DNA of 24,000 bases from Haliea sp. (GCA_040221975.1 JAVJWR010000033.1:498082-522081); one strand, 5' to 3'. Shown: positions 7,175-23,710, numbered from the stretch's first letter. Notes: generated by a model not told the origin, from the letters alone. Made by a program: numbers and translations.

Positions 7175-7965
7175 TATTCACCCCGATACTGTGGCGGACG
7201 TTTTTCCAGGAACGCGGCGACACCTTCACGGTAATCCGCGGTCTGGCCCGCGGCCCGCATCAATTCCTTTTCCAGTTCGAGCTGCTGGTCAAGCGTGTTG
7301 GCTGCCGAGGCCGCGAACGCCTGCTTGGTAAAGGCGAACCCGCGTGTGGGCTGGGTGGCCATGGTCTCAGCCAGTGCCAGTGCGGTCGCCTGCAATTCAT
7401 CATCCTCGACCACCTGCCAGATCATGCCCCAGGCCAGGGCCTGCTCCGCGGATACCTTGGGCCCCAGCATGGCGAGCCCCTTGGCCCGGGCCATGCCGAC
7501 CAGGCGGGGCAGGGTCCAGGTACCGCCTGAGTCCGGAATCAGGCCCAATTTGGCGAAGGACTCGATGAAACTGGCAGACTGCCCCGCAATGACGATGTCG
7601 CAGGCCAGGGCGATATTGGCGCCAGCTCCGGCCGCCACCCCGTTTACGGCACAGATCACCGGCTTCTCCATGCCGGCGAGCAGGCGGATCAGCGGATTGT
7701 AGTACTTTTCCACCGAGTCACCCAGGTCCGGCGGCGCATCGCCCGCGGACACGGCGCGGTCGTTGAGATCCTGGCCGGCGCAGAAGCCGCGGCCAGCGCC
7801 GGTCAGCAATACCGCCCGCACCTGGGGATCCCCGGCGGCACGGGTCAGTACTTCCCGCACCTCCGCGTGCATCGCCGCGGTAAAGCTGTTGAGCGCTGCG
7901 GGCCGGTTCAACACCAGCCGTGCCACGCCCTTGTCAATAGTGAACTCGATATGTTCCCAGGCCAT
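7174..7965 (-). CDS. paaG: 1,2-epoxyphenylacetyl-CoA isomerase (crotonase family)
   Basis: 263 aa with long identity runs to E. coli PaaG as I recall it (LLTGAGRGFCAGQDLNDR, KPVICAVNGVAAGAGA, GMIWQVV.D, ADYREGV.AFL.KR.PQ). The start is ATG at 7965, with GAGGAGGG overlapping the paaZ stop. Confidence 0.93.
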   Translation of the reverse strand: MAWEHIEFTIDKGVARLVLNRPAALNSFTAAMHAEVREVLTRAAGDPQVRAVLLTGAGRGFCAGQDLNDRAVSAGDAPPDLGDSVEKYYNPLIRLLAGMEKPVICAVNGVAAGAGANIALACDIVIAGQSASFIESFAKLGLIPDSGGTWTLPRLVGMARAKGLAMLGPKVSAEQALAWGMIWQVVEDDELQATALALAETMATQPTRGFAFTKQAFAASAANTLDQQLELEKELMRAAGQTADYREGVAAFLEKRPPQYRGE

Positions 7966-7980
7966 GAGCAGCTGCCCTCC

Positions 7981-10023
7981 TCAGTCTTCGCGGCGTTCTA
8001 CCAACGTCAGGATGTCGTAGATGGCCACTGGCTCGTCGGCCTGGTTGGTCACCTCGATGGCCCACACTACAACACCATTGGGTTTTTCATCACCGCGCTG
8101 GGCCTTCTTGATTTTCTTCTTCACCGTCAGCCGGGTACGGATGGTGTCGCCCGGCGCCACCGGTTCAACAAAGCGCAGATTCTCGAGACCGTAGTTGGCA
8201 ATGACCGGACCGGGAGCGGGATGCACAAACATCCCCGCCGCGGCGGATATCACGAAATAGCCGTGGGCGACGCGCTTGCCAAAGAAGGAGTCCTTGGCGG
8301 CAATTTCGTCAAAGTGGGCGTAGAAATGGTCGCCGCTGATGCAGCCGAAGTTGACAATGTCCGCTTCCGTCACCGTGCGCCGGTGCGTCAGCAGCGACTC
8401 ACCCACCTGCAGGTCCTCGAAATACTTTTTGAAGGGATGCACGTCATCGGAGTAGGATCGGGCCCCGGCATGGTACTCGGAGGTAATGGCCATCAACGTG
8501 GTCGGTGAGCCCTGCAGCGCGGTGCGTTGCATGTAGTGTTTGACGGCACGCAAGCCGCCGAGCTCTTCGCCACCACCGGCGCGCCCGGGACCACCGTGTA
8601 CCAGCGGCGCCAGCGGCGAGCCGTGGCCGGTTGACTCACCGGCGCAATCGCGATTGATGATCAACATGCGACCGTGCCATGGCGCTGTACCCAGTATCAC
8701 CTGCCGTGCCTCGGCATCGTCGAAGGTGAACAGGGAGCCAACCAGACTGCCCTTGCCGAGACGGGTGATGGCAATCGCATCGTCGATGTCCCGGTAAGGG
8801 ATGAGCGTGCTGACCGGGCCAAAAGCCTCCACTTCATGGACCAGCGTCTTGCCATGCGGATCGTCACAGCGCAACAGGGTAGGCGGAAAGAACGCGCCGC
8901 TGCTGTTGTCGGTACCGGTGAGCGGAAATGTTTCCCCGCCCCCATAGATCACTTCGCATTCGCGCGCCAGCTGCTCGACGCTGGCGCGCACATCCCGGGC
9001 CTGATCGCGGCCCACCAGCGGCCCCATGCGCACGCCTTCGGCGCCGGGATCGCCGACTGTGGTCTTTTCCAGCCGCGCCTGCAGCGCCCCGGCAACGGCG
9101 TCCAGTTGCGCGGCGGGCACGATGATACGGCGGATGGCGGTGCACTTCTGCCCCGCCTTGACCGTCATCTCCCGCACCACTTCCTTGATGAACAATTCGA
9201 ATTCCGGATCGTCAACCCCAACCGTGGCACCGAGGATGGCGCAATTCAGTGAGTCGGCCTCCATGGTGAAGGGCACCGAATTGGCCACCAGGTTGGGGTG
9301 GGTACGCAGCTTGCCCCCGGTGCTCGCGGAGCCGGTGAAGGTGACCACATCCTGCTCGGACAGATGCTGCAGCAGATCCCCGACAGAACCACAGATGAGC
9401 TGGATCGAACCTTCGGGGAAGAAGCCGCCCGCAATCATTTCCCGTACCATGGCCTCGGTGAGATAGGCCGTTGGCGTCGCCGGCTTGACGATTACCGGCA
9501 CCCCGGCGGCGAGGCTGGGTGCAATCTTCTCCAGCATGCCCCAGCAGGGAAAATTGAAGGCATTGATGTGTACCGACACGCCGGGCTTGGAGGTGAGGAC
9601 ATGGCGACCGAGAAAGCTGCCGCCCTTTGACAGGCGCTCGACATCACCTTCCGCCATGATGACATCGTTGGGCATTTCCCGGCTGACCAGGCTGGCATAG
9701 GTGAAGACCGTGCCAATGCCGCCCTCGATGTCGACCCAGCCGTCGGCGCGGGTCGCGCCGGTACGCGCCGACAGGGCGTAGAAATCTTCCTTGCGCTCCA
9801 TCAGGTGCTTTGCCATGGCCTTGAGGGCTGCTGCGCGCTCATGGAAAGTCATCGCGCGCAGGGCGGGCCCGCCGACGTCGCGACCGTGGCGCACCATTGC
9901 CGCAAAGTCCACGCCCTCGCTGCTGACGTCGCAGACCGGTTCACCGGTAACCGCGTCGCACACGGTAACACCGCTACCCGTGCCTTCCTGCCACTGGCCG
10001 CTGACATAACTTTGCAACTTCAT
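7981..10023 (-). CDS. paaZ: Bifunctional oxepin-CoA hydrolase / 3-oxo-5,6-dehydrosuberyl-CoA semialdehyde dehydrogenase (ALDH domain plus C-terminal MaoC hydratase domain)
   Basis: 680 aa, matching the length class of E. coli PaaZ. ALDH motifs are FTMEADSLN and GQKCTAIRR. The C-terminal MaoC-like region includes RVAHGYF. The start is ATG at 10023 with GGAG 8 nt upstream. It is the first gene of the minus-strand operon. Confidence 0.93.
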
Positions 10024-10092
10024 GAAGCGCGTCTCCTGTATTATGCGTTGTGGGATTTACCCGCCCCGGGCCAGCGCCCGAGGCCGCCAATT

Positions 10093-10120
10093 ATGATACA
10101 CAATGATTACCTTCTGTAAA
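10093..10120 (-). promoter_or_regulatory. Candidate sigma70 promoter of the paaZGIJABCDE operon (TTTACA-N16-TATCAT)
   Basis: Read on the minus strand as cTTTACAgaaggtaatcattgtgTATCATaat, about 70 nt upstream of the paaZ ATG. The -10 is embedded in the 8-mer TGTATCAT that recurs in other control regions of this window. Confidence 0.35.
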
Positions 10121-10272
10121 GCTTTATGTAATACTTTGGAGCCACTATCGCTCGCTTCGAATCCTGTCGCAAACTACTGCACAACCCAGCCTTGTTTGCC
10201 ATAATGTGGCGCCAAAGGCATCCGCACCCACGGCCCATGGCAAACAATAATTACTCCGGTGGAGCTTTCCCC

Positions 10273-11730
10273 ATGCGTAGACCACTTCAGTTTTTGGCAT
10301 CCCTCATTTTGCCCTTGGCGATGACGAGTCACACCCTCCCGGCTTATGGGGGGGATATCGCCAGGCAACTTGGAGCATTACGAGCCGGAACCCTGTCCAG
10401 TGAAGAGCTGGTGATGCGCAGCTTCACCCTGCATGAGCGCTACCGGGAGCATAATATTTTCATCAATCTGCCTCAGCAGGCAGTCTTGCAAGAGGCCAGA
10501 GAAAGGGACCGGGAGCGTACACAGGGTCGATTGCGCGGACCATTGCATGGCATCCCTCTGGTGGTAAAAGACAATATTCATGTCGCAGGCATGCCGAATA
10601 CCGCCGGGACGGAGGCGTTGCGGGCATTTGTGCCGGAACAGGACGCCGATGTGGTAGCGCGACTACGTGCCGCGGGCGCGATTATTCTCGGCAAGACGAA
10701 CATGCATGAGCTGGCCTATGGAATAACCAGCGACAATCGGGCCTATGGTGCGGTCGGCAATGCTGTCGACCCGAAATATTTTGCAGGCGGTTCCAGCGGT
10801 GGAACCGCCGTGGCCGTAGCCCTTGATCTTGCTGCGGCCGGGCTAGGTACCGATACCGGGGGCTCCAGCCGTATTCCCGCGGCTCTCAATGGTATTGTCG
10901 GGTTCAGGCCGACAACGGGACGCTACCCCAATGCCGGGCTCGTCATGATTTCCCGGACACGGGATACAGTCGGACCCATGGCGAAATCAGTGGAGGATAT
11001 CATCGTCCTCGATCAGGTATTGGCAGAAAAATCCTACACCCGGTCACCCGTAACCATTGACACCTTGCGCATCGGTGTGCCGCGCGACTACTTCTACACC
11101 GATCTCGACCCTGCTGTTGCGCGGCGTATGGCCCGGATCCTGCAGGCACTTGCCGATGCCGGTGTCACGCTTGTTGAAGAACCACTGCCAATGCTGGCCG
11201 ACCTCAATGAAAAAATCGGTTTCCCGCTGGTTATCCACGAGACCAAGAAGCTATTGGTGGACTATCTGGCCGAAAATCTGCCAGAGCTGTCGCTCTCTGA
11301 ACTGGTGGCGGAAATCCGCAGTCCCGACGTACAGGCCGTCATGGATATGGTGGTGTCCGGGACGATTTCGGAAGCCACCTATCGTGCCGCCCGGGACATT
11401 TATCGACCCGCTCTGCAACAGGTATATCGTGACTACTTTCTGCAAACGGGAGTAGATGCCATACTGTTTCCCACCGTCCCCTTGCCTGCGAGGCCGATAG
11501 CCGGAAGCATGGAATCAGTGACCTTGAACGGGACACAGGTTCCCACCTTCCCCACCTATATTCGCAATACCGACCCCGCCAGTAATGCGGGCATTCCCGG
11601 GTTGACGCTTCCGGCGGGAACCTCTGAACAGGGACTGCCGCTGGGCATCGAACTCGATGGCCCCGAGCGCAGCGATGAACGCCTGCTGGCTATCGGGCTG
11701 GCTCTGGAACGGTTTCTGGCCAACATGTAG
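10273..11730 (+). CDS. Amidase-signature (AS) family amidase with N-terminal export signal
   Basis: AS motifs are VVKDNI (catalytic Lys region), GGSSGGTAVAVA (cis-Ser) and GTDTGGSSRIPAA (Ser nucleophile). The track start is TTG at 10192. I prefer ATG at 10273 (GGTGGAG, 8 nt spacing), which gives MRRPLQFLASLILPLAMTSHTLPAYG, a signal-peptide-like N-terminus. ATG at 10237 is an alternative that would give a longer, Tat-like RR leader. Confidence 0.85.
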   Translation: MRRPLQFLASLILPLAMTSHTLPAYGGDIARQLGALRAGTLSSEELVMRSFTLHERYREHNIFINLPQQAVLQEARERDRERTQGRLRGPLHGIPLVVKDNIHVAGMPNTAGTEALRAFVPEQDADVVARLRAAGAIILGKTNMHELAYGITSDNRAYGAVGNAVDPKYFAGGSSGGTAVAVALDLAAAGLGTDTGGSSRIPAALNGIVGFRPTTGRYPNAGLVMISRTRDTVGPMAKSVEDIIVLDQVLAEKSYTRSPVTIDTLRIGVPRDYFYTDLDPAVARRMARILQALADAGVTLVEEPLPMLADLNEKIGFPLVIHETKKLLVDYLAENLPELSLSELVAEIRSPDVQAVMDMVVSGTISEATYRAARDIYRPALQQVYRDYFLQTGVDAILFPTVPLPARPIAGSMESVTLNGTQVPTFPTYIRNTDPASNAGIPGLTLPAGTSEQGLPLGIELDGPERSDERLLAIGLALERFLANM

Positions 11731-11876
11731 TTGCCGGGGGGATGCGGGTGCACGCACACCTGGATCATTGCGTGACCAAACTGCATGGGGATCCCTTCTC
11801 GCCTGTTCCAGCGGGAATAAACCCCACCAACGACTGCTAAACGGCTGTCGCTGGCGGGTTGCTCAGGGAAAGCCTG

Positions 11877-14156
11877 TCAGAGATTCCAGTTGACGCTGAC
11901 GCCATAGGTACGCGGAGCTCCCCAGACACCGATCACTCCAGGCCCGATAACATAAGAGTGAGAAACATATTCCTCATCGGTCAGGTTCTGACCCCACAGG
12001 GCCACCTCCCACTCAGCATCGTTGGAAATCCAGGCAATTCGAGCGTCGAGCAGATCCTGCTGATCAATGCGGGTTCGCTGGTCGATATAGTCATTGATCT
12101 GTTCGTCCGTGTGGGAAAATGCCAGTCGAAACTCCAGCTCACCCGATTGCACAGGTTGAACGTATTCTGCAACGAGGTTGTAAGATGTTTCGGGTGCCTG
12201 GCGCAGTTCGGAGCCGGAGGCATCGAAGGGGCCGCTGGTCAGTGTCAATACGAGATCTTTGACTTCGGTATCCAGGTAAGCGTAGTTTCCGGAAAAGCGC
12301 AGTTTTTCCGTCACAAACCAGGTCCACTCCAACTCCAGGCCAAGAATTTCTGCAGTGCCAATGTTGGTTGTCTGGAAGGTGCCGAAATCCGGGTTGACTG
12401 AAGAAGGACCAAAGCGGACGATCTGCAAATCTTCGTAATCGGTGTAGAAACCGGTGGCATTCAGGCGCAATGACCGGTCGAGAAACTCGCCTTTGAAACC
12501 GAGCTCATAGTTGAGCGCCTCTTCCGGCTCTACCGGCTGAGTGGCGTCGGCCTCTATGCCCTGAGAGCCGGCGAAACCTCCACTTTTAAAGCCCTTGGAG
12601 ATGGTGGCAAATGCCATGAGATCATCATTGGGGAAGTACTGCAGCGACAGCATCGGTGAAAAATCGCTCCAGTCGTTATCGGTTTCTACCCGAAATGCCT
12701 CCGCAATAATGTTCAGGCTGCCAGCCACTCCCTGACATGCGGGGAAGCCCTCGAATGGCGTGCCCTCTGTACTGCCATCGGCTACCAGGTCGCAGTTGAC
12801 CGCAGTCGCCGCATAATCCTTGTCATCAAGCGTATAGCGGCCGCCAAAAGTCAGGTTCCAGCGCTCGGCAAAGCGCCAGTTTGCCTGCCCGTAAACAGCA
12901 TAACTCGTGGTTTCATTTTCCGTCCGGGTGTATTCGTTCCCGACCGTCGTCTGGCCTGTGGCAACACTGTTGCGGTCCAGCTTGAACTCCTCCACCCGAT
13001 CGGTATCTTCAAGGAAGAAGTAACCGCCTATCGTGTAGTCGAAAGTATCGGAGAGACTTGAGGTCCAGCGCAACTCCTGGGAAAACGTTTCTATGTCCTC
13101 AACGATGTCATCATTGACATCAACTCCAAAGACGTCATCGAAAGGATCGTCTGGGTCACCAAAATCAAAACCACCTCCCGCAGGCGCCCCGATCGAAGGC
13201 ATCTCCCAGTCCGCTTCCGCGGTGCGAAAAGCCGTAATCGTGGTGAGGGTGCCGTTTCCGATTCCGATGTCACCCTGCAGGCTGATTCCGCTTGCTTCCC
13301 TGTCCGAGAAGCCCTCTATCGGTGCCGCCGACTTGTGAACGCCCCCGCCCAGCTGGTCCAACACGCTGAGATAATCGAAATTGCCATTGGCAATTGGGGT
13401 GCGCCCCATATCCTTCCGTTCGTCCTGCATGGCATCTGCTGAAAGCAGCCATTCCGACGACGCCAGCGATAACAGCAATTGAGCGCGAACAGAGGTCTGA
13501 TCCTGATCCTGAGTTTCGTTACCAAGCAACACGTTTCTTCCAAAACCATCGTGCTGCCTGTGGTTCAAGACGATTTTACCGGCGAGACTATCCGTCAATC
13601 CGCCGCTGAGGTAGCCCTGGTAGCGTTGGATTCCTTCGTTACCCACAGTAACTCCCAATTTGGCACTCAGTTCATCTGTGGGCTTGCTGGAAACGACATT
13701 GATTGCACCACCGATGGAGTTGCGGCCAAACAGCGTTCCCTGTGGACCCCTCAGCACCTCGATGCGTTCCATATCGAACATGTCGAAGTTCACGGCGGCG
13801 AGTCGCCCGATATAGACACCGTCTAGGAAGATAGCGGTTGAATTGTCAAGGCCCGCACCATCGTCCACTGAACTGATGCCACGTACCGAGATGATGGCCT
13901 GGCCCGGAGAAAACTCGGCGTAAGCCATGCCCGGTACATTCTTGGCGATGCCATTGGCATCAAAGATGTCGGCCTTTTTCAGTTGCTCTGACCCCATGGC
14001 TGTTATCGAGATAGGGACGTCCTGGATATCCTGTTCCCGGTGCTGGGCGGTAACCGTGACTTCTTCAAGTACGCCGGCAGTGGCCGTAGTGATGCTACCG
14101 GCAATACCAGACAGTGCAAGGCCGCATATGGCCCTGGAGAGGATCGATTTCTGCAT
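11877..14156 (-). CDS. TonB-dependent outer-membrane receptor
   Basis: 759 aa. It has the signal peptide MQKSILSRAICGLALSGIAGSITTATA, the TonB-box/plug start LEEVTVTAQ and the plug motif IEVLRGPQGTLFGRNSIGGAINVVS. A long beta-barrel region follows, ending in YGVSVNWNL. The start is ATG at 14156 with AAGGAAAAGG upstream. There is no N-terminal signalling extension. Confidence 0.9.
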   Translation of the reverse strand: MQKSILSRAICGLALSGIAGSITTATAGVLEEVTVTAQHREQDIQDVPISITAMGSEQLKKADIFDANGIAKNVPGMAYAEFSPGQAIISVRGISSVDDGAGLDNSTAIFLDGVYIGRLAAVNFDMFDMERIEVLRGPQGTLFGRNSIGGAINVVSSKPTDELSAKLGVTVGNEGIQRYQGYLSGGLTDSLAGKIVLNHRQHDGFGRNVLLGNETQDQDQTSVRAQLLLSLASSEWLLSADAMQDERKDMGRTPIANGNFDYLSVLDQLGGGVHKSAAPIEGFSDREASGISLQGDIGIGNGTLTTITAFRTAEADWEMPSIGAPAGGGFDFGDPDDPFDDVFGVDVNDDIVEDIETFSQELRWTSSLSDTFDYTIGGYFFLEDTDRVEEFKLDRNSVATGQTTVGNEYTRTENETTSYAVYGQANWRFAERWNLTFGGRYTLDDKDYAATAVNCDLVADGSTEGTPFEGFPACQGVAGSLNIIAEAFRVETDNDWSDFSPMLSLQYFPNDDLMAFATISKGFKSGGFAGSQGIEADATQPVEPEEALNYELGFKGEFLDRSLRLNATGFYTDYEDLQIVRFGPSSVNPDFGTFQTTNIGTAEILGLELEWTWFVTEKLRFSGNYAYLDTEVKDLVLTLTSGPFDASGSELRQAPETSYNLVAEYVQPVQSGELEFRLAFSHTDEQINDYIDQRTRIDQQDLLDARIAWISNDAEWEVALWGQNLTDEEYVSHSYVIGPGVIGVWGAPRTYGVSVNWNL

Positions 14157-14259
14157 GACACCTTTTCCTTTAAATTATTAAAATGACAGGTCGATTTCCC
14201 GTTGGGATGAGCAACTGTACTCGACAACCACAATTCCCACACAATAATTAAGGCTTAAT

Positions 14260-14287
14260 ATGATACAGAAATCAATACCTCTGGAAA
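14260..14287 (-). promoter_or_regulatory. Candidate sigma70 promoter of the TonB-dependent receptor gene (TTTCCA-N16-TATCAT)
   Basis: Read on the minus strand as aTTTCCAgaggtattgatttctgTATCATatt, about 100 nt upstream of the receptor ATG. Its architecture and sequence resemble the putative paaZ promoter. Confidence 0.3.
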
Positions 14288-14455
14288 TAATAAGTAATGT
14301 TTAGTGCAGAGGGGGTAGATATAAAATGGGACTTGGGTATATTTGACGCTCGCCACCTTGCTCAGGGGCGACACGCCGACACACCCATTCACAAACGGCA
14401 TTCGTCGCTGCAATGTCGGCAACAGCACTGCGCAGACATTTCAGGTTTAAAGTTA

Positions 14456-14486
14456 TTGACAGGCGCTCGGGCTGAATTGATATAGT
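14456..14486 (+). promoter_or_regulatory. Candidate sigma70 promoter for the DUF485-symporter(-pac-fadB-like?) transcription unit
   Basis: A perfect -35 TTGACA sits at 14456-14461. It is followed by GATATA at 17-nt spacing or TATAGT at 19-nt spacing. The site lies about 50 nt upstream of ATG 14535 in an AT-rich 378-bp intergenic region. Confidence 0.4.
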
Positions 14487-14534
14487 TATAAGCTCAAAGA
14501 TTACAGCCAGATGATAATAATCAAGGGATGTTCG

Positions 14535-14795
14535 ATGAATCACGATCAGAAACTGGCAGTAATCAAGGCCCGTACACGGCGCCGGATGCTATTCACTTTC
14601 GTAACACTTTTGCTCTATTTCGCGTTCATTTTGAACTGGACTGGTTTTGGCAGCATGTTGGCCCAGCGCTTGGGGGGATCACATATCACCGGGTCTCTAC
14701 TGATGTTCTGCTGCCTTATCGTGTTGTTTATCCTGCTGGAACTTCTTTTCCTGTTGCTGAACCGGGCGACCACCCGCTCTGGCGAGAACCTTTAG
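14535..14795 (+). CDS. DUF485 (YjcH-like) small two-TM membrane protein
   Basis: 86 aa from ATG at 14535 (AAGGGA 6 nt upstream); the track start at 14511 lacks an RBS. It has two hydrophobic helices and lies immediately upstream of an ActP-type symporter, with a 1-nt gap (TAGAATG), the canonical yjcH-actP arrangement. Confidence 0.75.
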   Translation: MNHDQKLAVIKARTRRRMLFTFVTLLLYFAFILNWTGFGSMLAQRLGGSHITGSLLMFCCLIVLFILLELLFLLLNRATTRSGENL

Positions 14796-14796
14796 A

Positions 14797-16398
14797 ATGA
14801 TTCCTTCTGGAAGCATTGCCCTGCAACCGCTGGACCCCCTGGCCATCAGCATGTTCCTGGTATTTGTCGGGGCTACCTTGCTGGTTAGTTACTGGGCATC
14901 CCGTCGCACCAAGAGTAGTTCCGACTTCTATACGGCAGGTGGCCAGTTGACGGGGCTACAGAATGGAACCGCCATCGCCGGCGACTTCATGTCGGCTGCC
15001 TCGTTCCTGGGTATTACCGGACTGGTGTTCCTGGGTGGCTTTGATGGCCTGGTTCTGGCCCTGGGTGCTTTTGCCGCCTGGCCGCTGCTGCTGTTTCTAC
15101 TGGCACGCCGTGTGCGGAACCTTGGTAGCTTCACGTTTGTCGATGTCGTGTCACAGCGTCTTGATCGGACCAGAATCCGCGTGGTTGCTGCCAGCGCAAC
15201 CATCGTCGTGGTTGTTCTTTATCTGATCGCCCAAATGGTGGGCGCAGGAAAGCTGATTGAGCTGCTTTTTGGCCTGCCGTACGAAGTCGCGGTTGTCGTG
15301 ATCAGTGGCTTGGTGTTGGCATATGTCACTTTTGGCGGCATGTTGGCTACCACATGGGTACAGATTATCAAAGCTATACTACTAATGACAGGTGTAACCA
15401 TAACTGCGGTTCTAGTCATGGCCATGAGCGGTTTCAGTTTTGAAACGCTGCTGGCGACGGCGGTGAGCAACCATCCCCGGGGCGAAGGAATTCTGGCGCC
15501 GGGGGTATTGTTCGACGACCCAGTACAGGTCACGACGATTCTCGTCTCCATGCTGTTTGGCACCCTTGGCTTACCTCATATTCTGATGCGCCTGTTTACT
15601 GTGCCAGACATGCATGAGGCGAAAAAGTCGGCATTTTACGCATCGTTGTTCATGGGCTACTTTTATCTGGCGCTGGTGATCATAGGTTTTGGCGCAGTCG
15701 CTTATCTGTATGGGGACCCGGAATTTTTCACCGAAGAAGGTGGCTTGATCGGCGGCAGTAATATGGCAGCGATTCACCTTTCCACTGCGGTGGGTGGCAA
15801 GTTGTTAACCGGCTTCATGTCGGCTGTGACATTTGCCACAATTCTCGCCGTGGTAGCTGGCCTGACAGTCTCGGGGGCCGCGGCCATTTCCCATGATCTC
15901 TATGCACAGGTGATCTGCAAAGGCGCGCCTGAACCGCGCAGAGAGCTGATGCTAACCCGGTTTACTACGATTGTGATCGGCGTCATAGCAATTGTTCTGG
16001 GCATTCTTTTCCAAAATGAAAATGTCGCGTTCATCGCCACCATGCCCATGGTAGTTGCCGCTTCGGTGAATTTTCCGATCCTGTTTCTGTCGCTCTACTG
16101 GTCTCAACTTACAACCCGGGGGGCAATTGCAGGTGCGTTGGTCGGCTTATTTTCTTCAGTATCGCTGATTGTGGTGGGTCCCCAGGTATGGGTATCAGTA
16201 CTGGGCTTCAAAGAAGCATTGTTTCCATACGATTATCCGGCATTGTTCACCCTGCCACTTGCGGTCGTCACCATGGCCGTGGTGTCTTACCTGGATGCCT
16301 CTGAAAGAGGGAAAATAGATCGACAGAAGTTCCACGATCTACTGGTGCGTTCAGAGTTTGGTGAACGAGACCAGCCTGTGCAGGTCGCACCACACTGA
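14797..16398 (+). CDS. Sodium:solute symporter family, ActP-like monocarboxylate permease (candidate phenylacetate importer)
   Basis: 533 aa multi-TM protein. The N-terminal region AISMFL.FV..TL...YWAS.R...S.D.YTAGG..TG.QNG.AIAGD.MSAASFLGI..LVF..G.DGL resembles E. coli ActP as I recall it. It is translationally coupled to the DUF485 gene. Confidence 0.88.
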   Translation: MIPSGSIALQPLDPLAISMFLVFVGATLLVSYWASRRTKSSSDFYTAGGQLTGLQNGTAIAGDFMSAASFLGITGLVFLGGFDGLVLALGAFAAWPLLLFLLARRVRNLGSFTFVDVVSQRLDRTRIRVVAASATIVVVVLYLIAQMVGAGKLIELLFGLPYEVAVVVISGLVLAYVTFGGMLATTWVQIIKAILLMTGVTITAVLVMAMSGFSFETLLATAVSNHPRGEGILAPGVLFDDPVQVTTILVSMLFGTLGLPHILMRLFTVPDMHEAKKSAFYASLFMGYFYLALVIIGFGAVAYLYGDPEFFTEEGGLIGGSNMAAIHLSTAVGGKLLTGFMSAVTFATILAVVAGLTVSGAAAISHDLYAQVICKGAPEPRRELMLTRFTTIVIGVIAIVLGILFQNENVAFIATMPMVVAASVNFPILFLSLYWSQLTTRGAIAGALVGLFSSVSLIVVGPQVWVSVLGFKEALFPYDYPALFTLPLAVVTMAVVSYLDASERGKIDRQKFHDLLVRSEFGERDQPVQVAPH

Positions 16399-16602
16399 TG
16401 GCGACACCTGACTACCACACCGCTCAGGCGGAGGCATGTTTGATGCATCTCGCTTGAATCGCTTTATGGTGCTTTCCAGGTCATGAAGGTAGTCTTTATT
16501 TGCCCCTGAAGCCTCGTGCGCACAACTTTATCGGTTCAATGCGGTTGCTGATGCCTCGTCACTCACTCAACCTGGCCAGAACCCCGAAACGAGAGGAATG
16601 CC

Positions 16603-19080
16603 ATGCTGAAAAAATACCGCTTCAATCCCGGAAAAGCTGTATTGACAGTATCGCTGCCATTGATTGGCGCCTTGCTGACAGGTCAGATCGCCAGCATGAA
16701 TTCGGCACATGCGGATTCCGGTCAAATAGTCGAGATTATTCGCGACACCTATGGAGTTCCCCATATTTTTGCCGATACAACCTATTCACTGTTTTTCGGC
16801 TATGGATATGCCATCGCTCAGGACCGTCTATTCCAACTGGAGATGACCCGGCGCAGCACTCAGGGACGGGTCGCGGAGGTGTTGGGCGAAGCCTACCTGG
16901 ACTTTGATATAGGTATCCGTCAGCACTATTCCCCCGACAACATTCGGATGCAAATGGCTAGACTGCCGCAGGAGGATCTGGATATTCTCAAGGGCTATGC
17001 CGACGGTATCAATCACTGGCTACAGTGCATAAAGAACGATCCAGGCCAGCGGATGCCAAAGCAGTTTATTGATTATCAAATCACTCCCCAGCCCTGGAGC
17101 TCGTTCGATGTTGCCATGGTATTTATCGGCTCCATGATCAATCGCTTCGGCGATTACAACACTGAACTGCAAAACCAGCAGCTACTCGAGCAACTCACAG
17201 AGCGACATGGCAAGGAAGCTGGGCTGTCCCTGTTTAACACCTTGGTCAACTTCTATGATGCCGATGCTCCTACCACCATACCCAAAGGTGCGTGGGATAC
17301 ACGCCTGCGCAGTGACGCCTTTTCCAAACTGAGCACTGACAAGAGCCCCATCAGCAAAAGCTCAGCGAAGCTGTTGGCGGGACTGGAAGGTACATTACAG
17401 CTGCCGAATGTACAGGAGCACCCGTTCAGCAACGTGTTCTTGCTGGGTGCCGCGAAGAGTCGCGATGCGCAAGCAATCCTGGTCAACGGGCCTCAGTTCG
17501 GCTTCTACCAACCCGCCTATACCTACTCGGTTGGTCTGCACGGCGCGGGATTCAATGCCGTGGGAAACAGCCCGTTCGGTTACCCGATGGTTCAGTTTGG
17601 TTACAATGAACATATCACCTGGGGAAGCACCTGGGCCGCGACCGACAATGTTGACATTTTCCAGCTGCAGCTCAATCCGGACAATCCAGCCGAGTACCTG
17701 CATCAGGGGAGATACCACCCCTTGCAGCGCAAGCTGGAAACCATCCATGTCAAAGGAGCAGATAGCCACGATCTTGTGATCTATCGTTCACACTATGGCG
17801 CCATTGTGGACTACCGTCCTGAAGAACATGTTGCCTATGCCAAGACCCGTGGCTGGGAGGGCGAGGAAATCAATACCCTGATGGCCTGGAACAAGCTTGG
17901 CAAAGCCCGCAACCACCAGCAATGGCTGGATCGTGTACAACCATCCGCCATCAACGTGAACTGGTACTATGCCGACGCTAAAGGAAATATCGGCTACGTG
18001 ATGGGTGGCCGCTATCCGCAACGGGCAGCCGGTCATGATGGGCGCACTCCTGTACCGGGAACAGGTGAGTATGACTGGCAGGGATTCATGCCTTTTGACA
18101 CCAATCCACAGATTTTCAACCCATCTACAGGCTACATCGCCAACTGGAACCAGCGCCCGGCCGAAGGGGTTCCCAATCCGGATATGTGGTGGTATGCCTG
18201 GCACGAGGCTGACCGGATCTCTTCCCTATCTTCGCGCCTGGAAGCTCGAGAAAAAATGACAGCGGAAGAGGCGTGGGATCTGATGATGGAGGTATCCTTC
18301 GAAGATCCCAATGCACGTTTCTATGTGCCACGCCTGATTCGGGCGCTCGAGACCACCGAACAATCGCCCATGAGACAAGCTCGAGACATTCTGGCCAGCT
18401 GGAATTATCTGGATCTCGATGACGACAGGAATGGGTATTATGATCACCCTGCGACAGCCATTTTCCGTCACTGGCAATATCAGTTGATCGAGTTGATACT
18501 GAAGGACTACCTCCCTGAAGAATTTGTATCCTGGTTCATCAGTACCGGTCATCCACAACCCGGAGAAGGGTCGTCCAGCCATAATCTCTCGGTGGCCGGG
18601 AAAGTAATCCATCGGATGCTGGCAAAGCATGACAAGGGAGAAGTTCTTGACTTTGACCTTTTGCAGGGACGTGATCCGGATGATCTGATGCGTGAGGCAA
18701 TGGCGCGTACACTTGCACAGCTGAGCGAAGATCAAGGTACCGATATGGCAAGCTGGCATCACCCAGTTTCCCATACCATTTATTCCTACAAGAACTTCCT
18801 CCAGATACCTCAGGCAGGCGAGGATGAAACAATGCTCAATCATCTTGCGATGAATCGTGGCACGGAAAACAACATGACCGTTTTCTCAGCGGATGGAGTC
18901 ATCGGTTACGAGGTGGCGGGCCCCGGCCAATCCGGCTTCATTGCAGCGGATGGAACCCGCTCTCCACATTATGACGATCAGCTGGAGCTTTTTGGGAAGC
19001 TCGACAAGAAACGCACCTGGTTGAACCGCAGTGATATCGAACAGGCGGCCCGGTCCCGCATCCAACTGCAACTGAAGTAG
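16603..19080 (+). CDS. pac: Penicillin G acylase (Ntn-hydrolase, penicillin amidase family) precursor
   Basis: 825 aa. It has a Sec-like signal peptide ending in SAHA. Long collinear matches to E. coli PGA as I recall it include HIFADTTYSLFFGYGYAIAQDRLFQLEMTRRSTQGRVAEVLG, FDVAMVFIGSMINRF, the autoprocessing site and beta-Ser1 nucleophile F|SNVFLLG (Ser codon 17428-17430), ILVNGPQFG, INWYYAD..GNIGY, GYIANWN and NRGTEN...GPGQSGF. GAGAGGAA precedes the ATG. Confidence 0.93.
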   Translation: MLKKYRFNPGKAVLTVSLPLIGALLTGQIASMNSAHADSGQIVEIIRDTYGVPHIFADTTYSLFFGYGYAIAQDRLFQLEMTRRSTQGRVAEVLGEAYLDFDIGIRQHYSPDNIRMQMARLPQEDLDILKGYADGINHWLQCIKNDPGQRMPKQFIDYQITPQPWSSFDVAMVFIGSMINRFGDYNTELQNQQLLEQLTERHGKEAGLSLFNTLVNFYDADAPTTIPKGAWDTRLRSDAFSKLSTDKSPISKSSAKLLAGLEGTLQLPNVQEHPFSNVFLLGAAKSRDAQAILVNGPQFGFYQPAYTYSVGLHGAGFNAVGNSPFGYPMVQFGYNEHITWGSTWAATDNVDIFQLQLNPDNPAEYLHQGRYHPLQRKLETIHVKGADSHDLVIYRSHYGAIVDYRPEEHVAYAKTRGWEGEEINTLMAWNKLGKARNHQQWLDRVQPSAINVNWYYADAKGNIGYVMGGRYPQRAAGHDGRTPVPGTGEYDWQGFMPFDTNPQIFNPSTGYIANWNQRPAEGVPNPDMWWYAWHEADRISSLSSRLEAREKMTAEEAWDLMMEVSFEDPNARFYVPRLIRALETTEQSPMRQARDILASWNYLDLDDDRNGYYDHPATAIFRHWQYQLIELILKDYLPEEFVSWFISTGHPQPGEGSSSHNLSVAGKVIHRMLAKHDKGEVLDFDLLQGRDPDDLMREAMARTLAQLSEDQGTDMASWHHPVSHTIYSYKNFLQIPQAGEDETMLNHLAMNRGTENNMTVFSADGVIGYEVAGPGQSGFIAADGTRSPHYDDQLELFGKLDKKRTWLNRSDIEQAARSRIQLQLK

Positions 19081-19164
19081 CCCCCAGTCATTCGAAGTGC
19101 GAAAAGCTGGAGTTTAGGATCAACCCATCTGTTGCAACAGTACATTGAATTCGTGGGAGAACAC

Positions 19165-21264
19165 ATGAACGATACCGCAGTAAAGTACGAGCTTAGTCGC
19201 AGCCTGGGCATCATCCGCATCGATAACCCGCCGGTGAATGCATTGTCACACAAGGTGCGCGCGGGCATCATGCAATCACTGGAGCAGGCCCGCACCGACG
19301 ACAGTCAACTGCTGCTGATTCTCTGCGCAGGCAGGACCTTTATCGCGGGCGCCGACATTACCGAGTTCGGCAAGCCGCCCCAAGCGCCCAGCCTGCCCGA
19401 TGTCATCATCGCCCTGGAAAATTTCTCCAAACCGGTGGCAGTGGCTCTGCACGGCACCGCCCTGGGTGGCGGCCTAGAGCTGGCGATGGCCTGCCACTAC
19501 CGCGCAGCCCTCCCCGGCACCCGGCTGGGGCTGCCGGAAGTCAAGCTGGGTCTCCTGCCCGGTGCCGGCGGCACCCAGCGCCTGCCGCGGCTGGTCGGCC
19601 CCGAGCTGGCGCTGGAGATGATCAGCGGCGGCGCGCCGATCAGCGCCAAAAAGGCCCTGGAGTCGGGCCTGGTTGACCAGATTCTGGACGGCGAACTGGA
19701 GCCCGCGGCAATCCGCTGGGCACAAACCCTGCTGGCGGAATCAGCGCCGGTGCGGCCCACGGGCGAGCGCCCTGTCCCCACACCTGCCCAGGCCGATTTT
19801 CTGGACCGCCATTTACAAAAAACCGCGCGCAAACACCGCGGCCAGCCGGCGCCGGGCTATATCGCCGAACTGGTGAAACTGTCGCTGAGCGCCAGCCTGG
19901 AAGACGGTCTCAAGCGCGAGCGGGAATGCTTCCTGGCCTGCAAGGCCTCGCCACAGTCCGCGGCCCTGCGCCACGTATTCTTTGCCGAGCGCGCGACCGG
20001 CAAGCTGCCCGACATCCCGGCGGACACCCCCCTGCGCCCGACCCGGCGCGTGGCGGTGATCGGTGCCGGCACCATGGGCGGCGGGATCGCCATGTGTTTT
20101 GCCAGCGCGGGCATTCCCGTCACCCTGGTGGAAACAACCCGGGAGTACCTGGACAAGGGGCTGGAAAAAATTCGCCAGAACTACGCCAATTCAGTGAAGC
20201 GCGGTCGCTTCACGGCCGAGGCGGTGGCGGGCTGGCTGGACAACATACAGGGTACGCTGGATTACGACGACCTCGCGGATGTGGACCTGGTGATCGAGGC
20301 GGTCTTCGAAAACATGGCGGTAAAGCAGGAGGTATTCGGCAAGCTTGACGCGGCCTGCAAGCCGGGCTGCATCCTCGCAACCAACACCTCCTATCTCGAC
20401 GTCAACGCCATTGCCGCCGCCACCAGCCGCCCCGCGGACGTTATCGGCGCGCACTTTTTCAGTCCCGCCAATGTCATGAAACTGCTGGAGGTCGTGCGCG
20501 CGGAAAAAACCGCGCCCGATGTGGTGCAGACGTTCATGAAGCTGGCTCGCACCATCGGCAAGATACCGGTCGCGGTGGGGGTCTGCCATGGCTTTGTCGG
20601 CAACCGCATGCTGCGGGCCTATGCGCGGCAGGCGCAGCTGCTGCTGCTGGAAGGTGCGACGCCGACACAGATTGATCAGGCCATGGAAAACTGGGGCATG
20701 GCCATGGGCCCGCTGGCGGTTGGCGACCTTGCCGGACTCGACATCGGCTACCGCTCGCGCCGCGACCAGGGCATCGAGTCGCGCTCGGTGCTGGAGTCCG
20801 CACTGGCGGACACCCTGGTGGAGATGGACCGCCTGGGGCAAAAGTCCGGCGCCGGCTATTACCGCTACGACCCCGACACCCGGGCCCGCCAGGCCGACCC
20901 GGAAGTCGAACAGCTGCTGCGTGACATCGCAGCCGAGTGGCAAGTGCCGCAGCGGGAAATCGGCGAAGAAGAGATTGTCGACCGGCTGATTCTCGCCCTG
21001 GTCAATGAGGGCGCCGCCATTCTCCAGGAGGGCATCGCGGCGCGGCCCAGCGATGTCGATATTGTCTATATCAACGGCTACGGCTTCCCCAGCTGGCGCG
21101 GTGGACCCATGTTCCATGCCGACAGCCTCGGACTGGACGCCGTGATTGCCCGGCTGCGGGAATTGCGCGAACTCACCGGGGACGAGAGTTGGGAGCCGGC
21201 GCCGCTGCTGCAGGAACTGGCGGTCGCGGGCGACAGCCTGGGCTCGCTCAACAGCCGCGGCTGA
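19165..21264 (+). CDS. Fused enoyl-CoA hydratase (N-terminal crotonase) / 3-hydroxyacyl-CoA dehydrogenase (C-terminal), FadB/FadJ-like
   Basis: The track start is TTG at 19132. ATG at 19165 has GGGAGA upstream and gives 699 aa. The crotonase part carries NPPVNAL, FIAGADITEFG and HGTALGGGLELAMACH. The dehydrogenase part carries the Rossmann motif VAVIGAGTMGGGIA and the HADH region HFFSPANVMKLLEV. Confidence 0.9.
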   Translation: MNDTAVKYELSRSLGIIRIDNPPVNALSHKVRAGIMQSLEQARTDDSQLLLILCAGRTFIAGADITEFGKPPQAPSLPDVIIALENFSKPVAVALHGTALGGGLELAMACHYRAALPGTRLGLPEVKLGLLPGAGGTQRLPRLVGPELALEMISGGAPISAKKALESGLVDQILDGELEPAAIRWAQTLLAESAPVRPTGERPVPTPAQADFLDRHLQKTARKHRGQPAPGYIAELVKLSLSASLEDGLKRERECFLACKASPQSAALRHVFFAERATGKLPDIPADTPLRPTRRVAVIGAGTMGGGIAMCFASAGIPVTLVETTREYLDKGLEKIRQNYANSVKRGRFTAEAVAGWLDNIQGTLDYDDLADVDLVIEAVFENMAVKQEVFGKLDAACKPGCILATNTSYLDVNAIAAATSRPADVIGAHFFSPANVMKLLEVVRAEKTAPDVVQTFMKLARTIGKIPVAVGVCHGFVGNRMLRAYARQAQLLLLEGATPTQIDQAMENWGMAMGPLAVGDLAGLDIGYRSRRDQGIESRSVLESALADTLVEMDRLGQKSGAGYYRYDPDTRARQADPEVEQLLRDIAAEWQVPQREIGEEEIVDRLILALVNEGAAILQEGIAARPSDVDIVYINGYGFPSWRGGPMFHADSLGLDAVIARLRELRELTGDESWEPAPLLQELAVAGDSLGSLNSRG

Positions 21265-21272
21265 GCCCCGGA

Positions 21273-21292
21273 GCGCCGCGCATCAGCGGCGC
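21273..21292. terminator. GC-rich hairpin between convergent fadB-like and paaK genes (GCGCCGC-gcatca-GCGGCGC)
   Basis: A perfect 7-bp stem with a 6-nt loop. The loop contains the paaK stop codon (complement of 21283-21285), and the 3' arm is followed by TTGT on the plus strand. The U-tract is weak, so function as an intrinsic terminator is uncertain. Confidence 0.3.
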
Positions 21293-22581
21293 TTGTCGAA
21301 TACGCGCTTGGCCTTGCCCTCGGAGCGGGGAATCACGCCGGGGGCATGCGGCTTCACTGCGGTGGATATCCCGATCATGGACTTGATGCGATGCTGCAGG
21401 GCCTGGGCCGCGCGCTGCATGTCACTCGCGGAGGATTCGCTGGCCATTTCCACGTGCACTTCCATCGCGTCCAGATGCCCATCCTTGGTGACTTCGATAA
21501 AGTAGTGCGGCGCAAGGCCTTCCACCGCCAGCAGCTGCTCCTCGATCTGGGTCGGGAACACGTTGACGCCGCGGATGATCAGCATGTCATCGCTGCGCCC
21601 GGTGATCCTGGCCATGCGACGCATGGTGCGGGCGGTACCGGGCAACAGGCGCGTAAGGTCCCGGGTGCGATAACGGATGACCGGCATGGCTTCCTTGGTC
21701 AGGCTGGTGAACACCAGTTCCCCCTCCTCGCCGTCCGGCAGCACTTCACCGGTATCGGGGTTGATGATTTCGGGGTAGAAATGATCCTCCCAGATGGTCG
21801 GCCCATCCTTGCTTTCCAGGCACTCCTGGGCGACGCCGGGACCCATTACCTCGGAGAGGCCATAAATATCCACCGCATCGAGGTTGAGCCGCTGCTCCAT
21901 CTCCCGGCGCATGGCATCAGTCCAGGGCTCGGCGCCGAAAATGCCCGCGCGCAGTGACAACTTGCGGGTATCCACATTCTGCCGATCCATCTCGTCGGCG
22001 ATATTCATCATGTAACTGGGCGTGACCATGATGATGTCCGGATCGAAATCGACAATCAGCTGGACCTGCTTCTCGGTCTGGCCACCGGACATCGGTATGA
22101 CGGTGCAGCCGAGCCGCTCGGCGCCGTAGTGAGCACCGAGCCCGCCGGTGAACAGGCCATAGCCGTAAGACACGTGAACCTTGTCGGCGGCACGACCGCC
22201 GGCGGCACGAATGGAACGGGCCACTACGTCCGCCCACACATCGATATCGCCCTGGGTATAGCCTACGACCGTCGGCTTGCCGGTGGTCCCGCTGGAAGCG
22301 TGAACGCGCACCACCTTGTCCATGGGTACGGCGAACATGCCGAACGGATAATTGTCGCGCAGGTCGCTCTTGCTGGTAAAAGGAAATTTCGCCAGATCTT
22401 CCAGTGCCTGCAGGTCGTCGGGATGAACACCGTGCTCGTCGAACTTCGCCCGGTACACCGGGGAGTGCTCGTAGGCGTGCTGGAGCGACTGGCGCAGGCG
22501 CTGCAGCTGCAGGCTGCGCAGCTCGTCGAGACTCGCTTTTTCAATGGGATGCAGTGGATCGAGACAGGGACTTTGACTCAT
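21283..22581 (-). CDS. paaK: Phenylacetate-CoA ligase
   Basis: The track start is GTG at 22605. ATG at 22581 (GGAG upstream) gives 432 aa starting MSQSPCLDPLHPIEKASLDELRSLQLQRL..., matching the E. coli PaaK N-terminus as I recall it. The AMP-binding motif SSGTTGKPTVV is present. Confidence 0.93.
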   Translation of the reverse strand: MSQSPCLDPLHPIEKASLDELRSLQLQRLRQSLQHAYEHSPVYRAKFDEHGVHPDDLQALEDLAKFPFTSKSDLRDNYPFGMFAVPMDKVVRVHASSGTTGKPTVVGYTQGDIDVWADVVARSIRAAGGRAADKVHVSYGYGLFTGGLGAHYGAERLGCTVIPMSGGQTEKQVQLIVDFDPDIIMVTPSYMMNIADEMDRQNVDTRKLSLRAGIFGAEPWTDAMRREMEQRLNLDAVDIYGLSEVMGPGVAQECLESKDGPTIWEDHFYPEIINPDTGEVLPDGEEGELVFTSLTKEAMPVIRYRTRDLTRLLPGTARTMRRMARITGRSDDMLIIRGVNVFPTQIEEQLLAVEGLAPHYFIEVTKDGHLDAMEVHVEMASESSASDMQRAAQALQHRIKSMIGISTAVKPHAPGVIPRSEGKAKRVFDKRR

Positions 22582-22625
22582 GGGGACTCCGTGGTGGCAG
22601 GTCACGCGGATTATTGTGGCCGCAA

Positions 22626-22778: not shown

Positions 22779-23708
22779 GTGGCACATCCGCCGGCCGTCA
22801 GGCGCCTGCTGGACACGTTCAGGACTCGCAAACCGATGCGCAGCACGTCGCTGATCATCACCCTGTTTGGCGATACCGTATCCCAGCACGGGCACACCCT
22901 CTGGCTGGGAAGCCTGGTGCATGCGCTGGCGCCTCTGGGCGTGAACGAGCGGCTGGTGCGGACTTCCGTGTTTCGCCTGGTCAGGGAGGGCTGGCTGGAG
23001 GCCGAGCGGGTCGGGCGTCGCAGCTATTATCGCTTCACTGCCCATGGCAACGCCGAGTATGAACGTGCCGCCCGGCGCATTTACGCGACCGAGGACACCA
23101 GCTGGGAGGGACACTGGCAAATCCTCATTCCCCTTGCCATTGCCGAATCCGATCGCGACGATTTTCGCCGCAGCCTTAACTGGCAGGGTTTCCGCGCGAT
23201 AGCGCCCGGCACCCTGGCCAAGCCCGGCAGCCCGGGCCAGGCCCTGCGGGAAACCCTCGAGGAATTCGACGCCAGTGACAAGGTGCTGCTGTTCGACGCC
23301 ACCAGTTCCACCCTGGGCTCGGCCAGGCGCCTGCGACAACTGGTCCACGAAAGCTGGCAACTCGACGCCACCGCGGCAGCCTACCGTGCTTTCCTGGACA
23401 ACTTCAGGCCCCTGCAACGCTGGGTGTCGCGACAACGGCAACTGGAACCCGAAGCGGCTTTCATCGTGCGTACCTTGCTGATTCACGACTTTCGCCGGGT
23501 CCTGCTGCACGACACCCCGCTGCCGGAGGAACTGTTGCCGCCCGGCTGGCCCGGCGCCGAAGCCCTGGCCCTCACCGGCAGCTTGTATCAGGAGCTGGCC
23601 GCGGCTTCCACCGTATACATCACCGACAACCTGGAGGGCGGGAACGGACCCTTGCCCGCGGCTGGCGCCAGCTTCAGCGCCCGCTTCCCCAACCTCAGGC
23701 GCGGCTGA
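22779..23708 (+). CDS. paaX: Phenylacetyl-CoA-responsive transcriptional repressor PaaX
   Basis: The N-terminal winged-helix region LLDTF...TSLIITLFGD...LWLGSL...ERLVRTSVFRL..EGWLE..R.GRRSYY resembles E. coli PaaX as I recall it. The start is uncertain. The track uses TTG at 22671. I prefer GTG at 22779 (GAGAGG 7 nt upstream; 309 aa, near the E. coli length). ATG at 22716 or 22836 are alternatives. Confidence 0.85.
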   Translation: MAHPPAVRRLLDTFRTRKPMRSTSLIITLFGDTVSQHGHTLWLGSLVHALAPLGVNERLVRTSVFRLVREGWLEAERVGRRSYYRFTAHGNAEYERAARRIYATEDTSWEGHWQILIPLAIAESDRDDFRRSLNWQGFRAIAPGTLAKPGSPGQALRETLEEFDASDKVLLFDATSSTLGSARRLRQLVHESWQLDATAAAYRAFLDNFRPLQRWVSRQRQLEPEAAFIVRTLLIHDFRRVLLHDTPLPEELLPPGWPGAEALALTGSLYQELAAASTVYITDNLEGGNGPLPAAGASFSARFPNLRRG

Positions 23709-23710
23709 GC

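Follow-up and report, generated by a model that had tools for sequence, protein, structure and literature searches.

A 24,000-nucleotide stretch of Haliea sp. DNA (GCA_040221975.1 JAVJWR010000033.1:498082-522081), referred to as the window, carries a complete paa cluster, whose genes exceed the NCBIfam equivalog cutoffs wherever such models exist. Between paaZ on one side and a fadB-like gene, paaK and paaX on the other lie five genes, encoding an exported amidase of the amidase-signature (AS) family, a TonB-dependent receptor (TBDR) of the outer membrane, a small DUF485-like membrane protein, an ActP-like sodium:solute symporter, and an exported penicillin G acylase (PGA) (Table 1). This gene content had been proposed in a first-pass annotation of the window and was confirmed by Pfam and NCBIfam profile searches. 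The five genes probably represent a horizontally acquired accessory module of the phenylacetyl-CoA catabolon, inserted in the divergent promoter of paaZ and fadB and predicted to scavenge phenylacetyl amides. Judged on sequence comparison, we give this interpretation a probability of about 0.6.

The insertion can be traced by comparison with related genomes. PaaZ of the window is 99% identical to that of a Haliea sp. metagenome-assembled genome (MAG; L167), 93% to that of Haliea sp. E1-2-M8 (L166) and 87% to that of Kineobactrum salinum (L168). In all three, comprising the two nearest Haliea genomes and Kineobactrum, the block is absent and the fadB-like gene directly adjoins paaZ, the gene order being paaX, paaK, the fadB-like gene and then the divergent paaZ-G-I-J-A-B-C-D-E genes with a pyrroloquinoline quinone (PQQ) dehydrogenase. 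Using blastn, positions 3-10136 and 19156-23739 of the window were found to be collinear with L167 at 94-95% nucleotide identity, and only ~40 bp separate the two segments in L167, the insert having taken the place of these ~40 bp between paaZ and fadB. On the left, the insert starts 4 bp past a native operator-like element (10093..10132), which is kept in the empty sites of L167 and L166, while on the right, native DNA starts again at 19156, at a distance of 9 bp from the fadB ATG and just 5' of its ribosome-binding site. The first-pass annotation had drawn the block from 10024 to 19164; the insert is real, yet the empty sites move its borders to 10137-19155.

Table 1 Features of the window and of the inserted block, with the profile scores or other evidence for each.
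Feature	Position	Strand	Evidence or remark
paaE-D-C-B-A, paaJ, paaI, paaG, paaZ	1815-10023	-	
paaZ, leading gene of the native paaZ-G-I-J-A-B-C-D-E operon	7981..10023	-	TIGR02278 1043.7 bits
Native operator-like site, paaZ/(formerly) fadB divergent promoter	10093..10132	.	ATGATACA-N26-TGTAATAC
Horizontally acquired low-GC insert, 9,019 bp	10137..19155	.	blastn against Haliea MAG L167 and GC shift
AS amidase, exported, indoleacetamide/arylacetamide-hydrolase-like	10273..11730	+	PF01425 349 bits
TonB-dependent receptor (TBDR), outer membrane	11877..14156	-	Plug PF07715 68.5 bits; TonB_dep_Rec_b-barrel PF00593 150.9 bits
Divergent control region inside insert (TBDR/DUF485)	14157..14534	.	43% GC; holds ATGATACA box
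Insert box ATGATACA in TBDR/DUF485 region	14260-14267		degenerate partner ~26 nt downstream
DUF485 (YjcH-like) small membrane protein, symporter partner	14535..14795	+	PF04341 23.9 bits, under gathering score 28
ActP-like sodium:solute symporter	14797..16398	+	PF00474 329 bits
Exported penicillin G acylase (S45 Ntn-hydrolase, PGA clade)	16603..19080	+	PF01804 477 bits
Native fadB-like enoyl-CoA hydratase/3-hydroxyacyl-CoA dehydrogenase	19165..21264	+	ECH_1, 3HCDH_N, 3HCDH domains; GC3 0.81
paaK, phenylacetate-CoA ligase	21283..22605	-	TIGR02155 744 bits (cutoff 646)
Two ATGATACA boxes in paaK/paaX intergenic region	22661-22668 and 22710-22717		
paaX repressor	22836..23708	+	TIGR02277 293.8 bits (cutoff 264.6)

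The composition of the block changes at both borders and fewer long open reading frames (ORFs) run through it, as the first-pass annotation had noted from the sequence. Computed GC content is 54.1% in the block, against 63.6% in the left and 64.3% in the right flank, and GC at third codon positions (GC3) is 0.60-0.65 in all five block genes against 0.73-0.81 in the flank genes. In codon usage, each of the five block genes is nearer to the block pool and each of the eleven flank genes nearer to the flank pool. Spurious ORFs of at least 90 amino acids occur at ~1.3 per kb in the block, about half the density of the flanks (~2.5 per kb). In other genomes, the GC3 of the module genes equals that of the neighbouring paa genes, so the GC dip, peculiar to this window, is a sign of transfer into Haliea rather than a property of the genes. 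Also in line with the first-pass annotation, no transposase or integrase was found at the block borders in the window, nor was any tRNA or other mobility gene. A repeat search of the insert borders revealed neither direct nor inverted terminal repeats, the junctions show no target-site duplication, and an Rfam scan of the window returned no RNA family. Judging from the empty sites and the composition, the block is a recent insertion of foreign DNA and a strain-level gain in Haliea.

The native fadB-like gene now stands apart from its divergent promoter and operator, with the insert in between. Since that promoter is out of reach, expression of fadB presumably relies on read-through transcription from the acquired DUF485-ActP-PGA unit. 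The corresponding region of Kineobactrum salinum CP048711 (L168; 6192-9771 and 16623-18275) shows peculiarities of its own: the fadB-like gene is called as two ORFs of 574 and 119 amino acids, no paaK is called although the DNA aligns with the window paaK, and paaD and paaE are called as a single 550-amino-acid product. These could reflect decay of the cluster or sequencing frameshifts.

The acylase of the block is, by its sequence relatives and active-site residues, a genuine PGA-clade enzyme, as the first-pass annotation had suggested in calling it an exported penicillin G acylase orthologue. The Penicil_amidase domain covers residues 43-813, and among solved structures its nearest relatives are true PGAs, of the types found in E. 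coli/Kluyvera, Providencia and Alcaligenes (7reo, E=3.5e-201; 1cp9; 1pnk), while cephalosporin acylases and N-acyl-homoserine lactone (AHL) acylases reach only ~1e-19. The nucleophile beta-Ser1 corresponds to residue 276 and is accompanied by bQ23, bN241 and bR263 as well as by the aromatic acyl pocket aM142, aF146, bF24, bF57 and bW154. Among 125 homologues, bS1, bQ23, bN241, bR263, bF24 and bW154 are invariant and bF57 is kept in 124. The N-terminus resembles a signal peptide ending in SAHA; here, as for the amidase and the TBDR, the export signal was judged by eye. Two positions vary within the family. At beta-69, whose backbone belongs to the oxyanion hole, E. coli PGA has Ala, whereas Trp is found in the window enzyme (residue 344) and in 70 of the 125 homologues, and alpha-146 (window residue 182) is Tyr in 41 of 50 TBDR-linked PGAs and Phe in 69 of 75 unlinked ones. 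These differences may mark a difference in substrate specificity. The window PGA is 82% identical to that of Nitrincola alkalilacustris (L002). In Nitrincola and in metagenome contig L082, this closest PGA is found with two LysR genes, a class-III aminotransferase, an aldehyde dehydrogenase and an EamA transporter, which could be another amine-to-phenylacetate setting, without a TBDR.

The amidase and the receptor likewise agree with their first-pass assignment as an exported AS-family amidase and a TBDR, and the other two products are probably, as proposed there, a DUF485 protein with an ActP-like symporter. The amidase scores 585.7 bits against the NCBIfam model NF005688 'indoleacetamide hydrolase' (cutoff 532) and keeps both the GGSSGG signature and the catalytic-Lys motif VVKDN. 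Its N-terminus, starting MRRPLQFLASLILPLAMTSHTLPAYG, resembles a Sec-type signal peptide when the start at 10273 set by the gene caller is used (the mechanical ORF starts at 10192, TTG). Orthologues have a hydrophobic N-terminus in 43 of 47 cases, mostly with a lipobox cysteine, and thus the amidase is usually an envelope lipoprotein. In the TBDR, a signal peptide precedes the TonB box LEEVTVTA; this box does not vary within the TBDR family, E30, E31, V34 and T35 being invariant in 29 homologues. As for its ligand class, every NCBIfam subfamily match is far under its cutoff (best TIGR01783, 164 against 223.5). It is not SusC-type (TIGR04056, 36.7 bits against a cutoff of 368), and none of the five block genes is SusD-like. 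The closest relatives of the receptor, at 80% and 75% identity, are each followed directly by a PGA gene. The symporter scores 734 bits against the NCBIfam ActP subfamily model (cutoff 750) and 674 against the equivalog (cutoff 1099). Adjoining it is the DUF485 gene (mechanical ORF start 14511), in the same arrangement as yjcH-actP, and the DUF485 orthologue in L028 scores 48.6 bits, above the score of the window protein. ActP-like homologues are also placed between paaK and the TBDR gene in L056, L134 and L136. From its family and this synteny, the ActP-like symporter is likely to be the inner-membrane importer of phenylacetate.

The association of these genes extends far beyond Haliea. Two independent searches were made, a PGA-seeded genome scan and a TBDR-seeded metagenome scan, each yielding 80 loci, and 54 of the latter had enough downstream sequence for analysis. 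In the PGA-seeded scan, an orthologous amidase (45-52% identity) and TBDR (56-63%) flank the PGA gene in at least 14 of the 80 loci. There, the usual order is amidase-TBDR-PGA on one strand, often with an ActP-like gene upstream and paaK downstream, and mostly beside a paa cluster. Hosts of this trio include Woeseiaceae, Pseudomonadales and Lysobacterales MAGs as well as Glaciecola sp. 33A. In the TBDR-seeded scan, a co-directional PGA gene starts no more than 600 bp downstream of the TBDR gene in 43 of the 54 loci. When considering the 21 loci with at least 5 kb on either side of the TBDR gene, PGA is present in 20, paa genes in 15, the amidase in 13 and the symporter in five. Genes for the amidase, PaaK, PaaX, PaaZ and the ActP-like protein are often adjacent to the TBDR-PGA pair, and a recurrent layout (L140-L158) of paaX, paaK, TBDR, PGA, amidase, paaZ, paaG, paaI and paaJ becomes, when flipped, the layout of the window. 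By this recurrence, the TBDR-PGA(-amidase) set is a conserved and widespread marine module. The proposition of the first-pass annotation that the parts are functionally linked thus gains from the many loci in which they are neighbours, though the system is not peculiar to this window.

The surroundings of the module are informative as well. In several lineages, genes for an aldehyde dehydrogenase, the heavy and light chains of a tryptophan tryptophylquinone (TTQ) amine dehydrogenase, MauE/MauD and cytochromes c are located upstream, and in L026 (750-5849), L028 (91-4439), L032, L034 and L073 this amine-dehydrogenase set lies directly upstream of DUF485-ActP-amidase-TBDR-PGA. A TonB-ExbBD set had been expected among the conserved upstream genes, which instead proved to be those of the amine-dehydrogenase set. 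This set looks like a periplasmic route from aromatic amines such as phenylethylamine to phenylacetate, and if so, the whole neighbourhood would funnel compounds into phenylacetate. Variants of the receptor part were also observed. In L091, L126, L131 and L137, a second, distant TBDR (31-35% identity) is encoded in tandem directly upstream of the module TBDR. On a Pseudomaricurvus-like contig (L169, 4421-8633), genes for an extracytoplasmic function (ECF) sigma factor, a FecR-like anti-sigma factor and an STN-domain TBDR precede TBDR-PGA, and a major facilitator superfamily (MFS) transporter gene follows. This arrangement may be another regulatory solution, by cell-surface signalling, for perhaps the same uptake function.

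The copy in the window departs from the usual organisation. Clustering of the 125 PGAs gave five clusters that are almost wholly TBDR-linked, yet the window PGA falls in a sixth, together with those of Nitrincola, Vreelandella, Photobacterium, Zobellella, Oceanisphaera, Pseudomonas and Serratia. None of the 19 other members of this cluster is TBDR-linked, and several are located in paa clusters. The PGAs encoded beside the closest receptors are only 34-36% identical to that of the window, the TBDR gene stands inverted and alone on the minus strand, and the acylase gene comes after the symporter gene. On the clustering and gene order, the window copy is a rearranged mosaic, in which the usual partner acylase was lost and a PGA of another lineage recruited. 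We take this replacement as an argument that the module needs PGA function.

A shared sequence motif connects the module with the control of the paa genes. The 8-mer ATGATACA is present four times in the window against 0.22 expected, a count reached in 0 of 100 shuffles, and all four copies are found in three divergent control regions, namely the native paaZ/amidase region, the TBDR/DUF485 region of the insert and, twice, the paaK/paaX region. Promoter-like sequences on the minus strand overlap both the native site at 10093..10132 (TTTACA-16-TATCAT) and the insert box at 14260-14267 (TTTCCA-16-TATCAT). The signal emerged only through this 8-mer and through comparison across loci. In 2.46 Mb of related loci, GATACA-N24-27-TGTATC with no more than one mismatch was found 67 times, compared with ~13 in shuffles, and the spacing is 25 in 49 of the matches. 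By position, 49 of the 67 are located within 400 bp upstream of a gene of interest (TBDR 21, paaK 11, PGA 7, paaA 6, paaZ 2, paaX 1 and amidase 1). The motif is present in 20 of 82 TBDR upstream regions, compared with 1.4% of random windows. Its inverted-repeat architecture matches that of the E. coli PaaX operator, TGATTC-N27-GAATCA (PMC9493321). A window-only scan with this E. coli form gave one weak match, inside paaA, and no paper pairing PaaX with GATACA was found in the literature searched. The Pseudomonas PaaX box is presumably GATACA-N26-TGTATC. The inverted repeat common to paa and TBDR promoters is a candidate PaaX operator, to which PaaX would bind.

Similar repeats were seen elsewhere. 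In Serratia and Pseudomonas loci (L005-L008, L011, L012 and L015), GATACA/GACACA-N25-TGTATC is located ~55-216 bp upstream of the PGA gene with no paa genes within 10 kb, which suggests that the link between PaaX and pac known from E. coli W extends to further genera. At paaX itself, the mechanical ORF is probably too long at its 5' end, the true start being 22836, and a 417-amino-acid ORF antisense to paaX (22665-23918, minus strand) has no Pfam or NCBIfam match and a GC3 of 0.65, below its GC1 of 0.76. It is almost certainly a spurious antisense ORF of high-GC DNA.

Taken together, these parts can be arranged into a pathway across the envelope. The TBDR would actively import scarce phenylacetyl amides across the outer membrane. 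In the periplasm, PGA would split N-phenylacetyl amides, such as phenylacetyl-amino acids or peptides, and the AS amidase would split primary arylacetamides such as phenylacetamide, both freeing phenylacetate. The DUF485/ActP-like symporter would then bring phenylacetate across the inner membrane, where the native PaaK would make phenylacetyl-CoA and feed the Paa pathway. Finally, phenylacetyl-CoA, the known inducer of PaaX, would lift repression of module and core genes alike through the GATACA-type operators. Such a chain of uptake, hydrolysis, import, activation and PaaX control had been sketched in the first-pass annotation; enzyme classes, export signals, synteny and the shared motif speak for it, while the ligand, the substrates and PaaX binding are parts that we infer. 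AS amidases hydrolyse phenylacetamide well (PMC4844348), and the aspartate and glutamate conjugates of phenylacetic acid (PAA), PAA-Asp and PAA-Glu, occur in nature (PMC7065595). It is thus plausible, if speculative, that phenylacetamide and N-phenylacetyl-amino acids such as PAA-Asp and PAA-Glu are the natural substrates.

Several observations weigh against this scavenging module. The canonical TBDR-PGA operon is broken in the window, and with the TBDR gene alone on the opposite strand, the coupling looks looser here than in the family. The receptor has no close solved or characterised relative, its best match in the PDB being the pesticin receptor (E=1.8e-21). The second half-sites of the window boxes are degenerate, and a window-only scan for GATACA-N24-29-TGTATC with up to two mismatches gave five matches against 2.9 expected, which is not above chance. 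Nor could the donor search name a single donor: the closest homologues are on different contigs (TBDR 80% and amidase 65% in L084, PGA 82% in Nitrincola, ActP 64% in L121), none of which has the gene order of the window. Finally, stand-alone loci without adjacent paa genes or the operator motif exist in Pseudoteredinibacter isoporae (L170) and in L084, L094 and L137, no operator motif being found upstream of the TBDR gene in these four or in L169, so the module is often, but not always, tied to phenylacetate catabolism. The stand-alone amidase-TBDR-PGA loci are what would be expected if the module mainly harvested the amine or nitrogen, or inactivated acyl-amide signals or antibiotics such as AHLs and benzylpenicillin, with phenylacetate a mere by-product. 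Some AHLs can be cleaved by PGA-type enzymes. Moreover, some soil bacteria are known to break down penicillin by way of amidases and the paa pathway, according to the account of Crofts et al. 2018 given in PMC11446756, and a penicillin-catabolic role resembling that of the put operon is a further alternative. Yet the block has no beta-lactamase, paa genes accompany the receptor at 15 of the 21 well-flanked loci, often with paaK in the same operon, the acyl pocket is of the aromatic PGA type, and the operator motif is common to the paa core promoters. We therefore regard a nitrogen-harvesting or signal-inactivating role as improbable.

Somewhat better placed, though still unlikely, is the idea that the TBDR takes up free phenylacetate or a related aromatic acid, as a marine high-affinity substitute for the PhaK porin of P. 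putida, with the hydrolases acting separately on small amides that diffuse through porins. L126, L128 and L131, which encode an ActP-like symporter straight after the TBDR and no PGA, would fit this, as would the window itself, where the TBDR gene is not co-transcribed with a hydrolase gene. However, the succession of TBDR and PGA dominates (43/54) and is far tighter than that of TBDR and ActP (5/21 well-flanked loci), and that five separate PGA clades are almost wholly TBDR-linked is hard to explain were the receptor's cargo in no need of hydrolysis. A different kind of objection is that the block is an assembly chimera, or a native region of unusual composition, instead of a true insertion. 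The window does derive from a metagenome-type assembly (Logan contig), and neither mobility genes nor a target-site duplication mark the borders of the block. We nevertheless hold this objection to be very improbable, as the flanks are collinear with one Haliea locus, the junctions are clean and lie inside one intergenic region, and the five block genes all deviate in codon usage, in a coherent way, from the eleven flank genes. In addition, an independently assembled Haliea MAG contig from NCBI (L171), 99.98% identical to window positions 17659-22142, spans the right junction, which argues against a chimera.

Each element of the proposed scavenging module is of a kind known from other bacteria: E. 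coli W has a PGA under the control of PaaX, the phenylacetate cluster of P. putida encodes its own transport, and utilisation loci with TonB-dependent receptors are established as well. The PGA of E. coli W is viewed as scavenging phenylacetyl esters and amides under PaaX control (PMC9493321). In that strain, pac/pga codes for a periplasmic S45 acylase of the PGA clade that PaaX ties to the phenylacetyl-CoA catabolon, and the window PGA has the same catalytic residues and acyl pocket. Yet pac stands alone in E. coli W, with no linked outer-membrane receptor, second amidase or importer, whereas here and in many marine bacteria PGA is joined by a specific TBDR. Envelope transport of the pathway substrate is also encoded by the paa/pha cluster of P. 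putida, through the PhaJ/PaaL permease and the PhaK porin. The permease is presumably of the sodium:solute symporter type, as is the ActP-like gene product here. For the outer membrane, however, P. putida uses a passive OprD-type porin, PhaK being annotated as phenylacetic acid-specific (PMC13332142), whereas the block encodes an energised TBDR coupled to periplasmic hydrolases.

The block also resembles TonB-dependent loci, such as the SusC/SusD polysaccharide utilisation loci (PULs) of Bacteroidetes and proteobacterial TBDR clusters, in combining a receptor with hydrolases of the envelope, often lipoproteins, and with a probable inner-membrane importer and presumed control by the substrate. 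It differs from SusC/SusD PULs in the absence of a SusD-like gene, in the type of its TBDR, and in its presumed substrates, which are aryl-acyl amides instead of glycans. In the put operon of Pseudomonas sp. ABC07 (Crofts et al. 2018), as far as it is described in the summary in PMC11446756, amidases free phenylacetate for the paa pathway and a transporter is encoded alongside. According to the same summary, that operon includes genes for a beta-lactamase and an MFS importer, and it is penicillin, not phenylacetate, to which it responds. Profile searches of the block genes with Pfam and NCBIfam found neither a beta-lactamase nor an MFS gene; measured against the put operon as summarised there, the block has a TBDR, a symporter of the sodium:solute type and the paa-operator-like motif. 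Literature searches of limited coverage gave no description of this TBDR family paired with a penicillin acylase or amidase in a phenylacetate context. The remark in the first-pass annotation that no characterised system of this composition was known agrees with this for the combination, whereas an ActP-like importer and a PaaX-controlled PGA are ideas already known. The part for which these searches gave no description is that one specific TBDR family is paired, in a conserved way, with acylases of the PGA clade and an amidase of the envelope, inside paa clusters or next to them.

PGA is among the most heavily used industrial enzymes, while its physiological role is still hypothetical. The conservation of a dedicated, energised receptor beside PGA in dozens of marine lineages argues that the substrates are specific, scarce or bulky enough to require active capture, and the ligand of the receptor offers a concrete handle for finding natural PGA substrates. 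More tentatively, and with odds we would put well below even, TBDR-PGA(-amidase) could be a so far unrecognised marine system, widely distributed, that takes up and hydrolyses a specific phenylacetylated ligand from nature, for which phenylacetyl-amino-acid (auxin) conjugates, or phenylacetyl-capped peptides from phytoplankton or other microbes, are candidates. The natural role of PGA is directly testable, as the module occurs in cultured strains (Glaciecola sp. 33A, Pseudoteredinibacter isoporae). For Haliea, the finding would represent a strain-level gain by insertion into the control region of a core pathway, rewiring the essential pathway gene fadB, and in a wider sense, it would extend the logic of TonB-dependent utilisation loci from glycans and siderophores to aryl-acyl amides. 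If a specific ligand indeed exists, its identity would reveal a long-sought natural substrate of PGA, together with a route of phenylacetate and auxin turnover in the sea.

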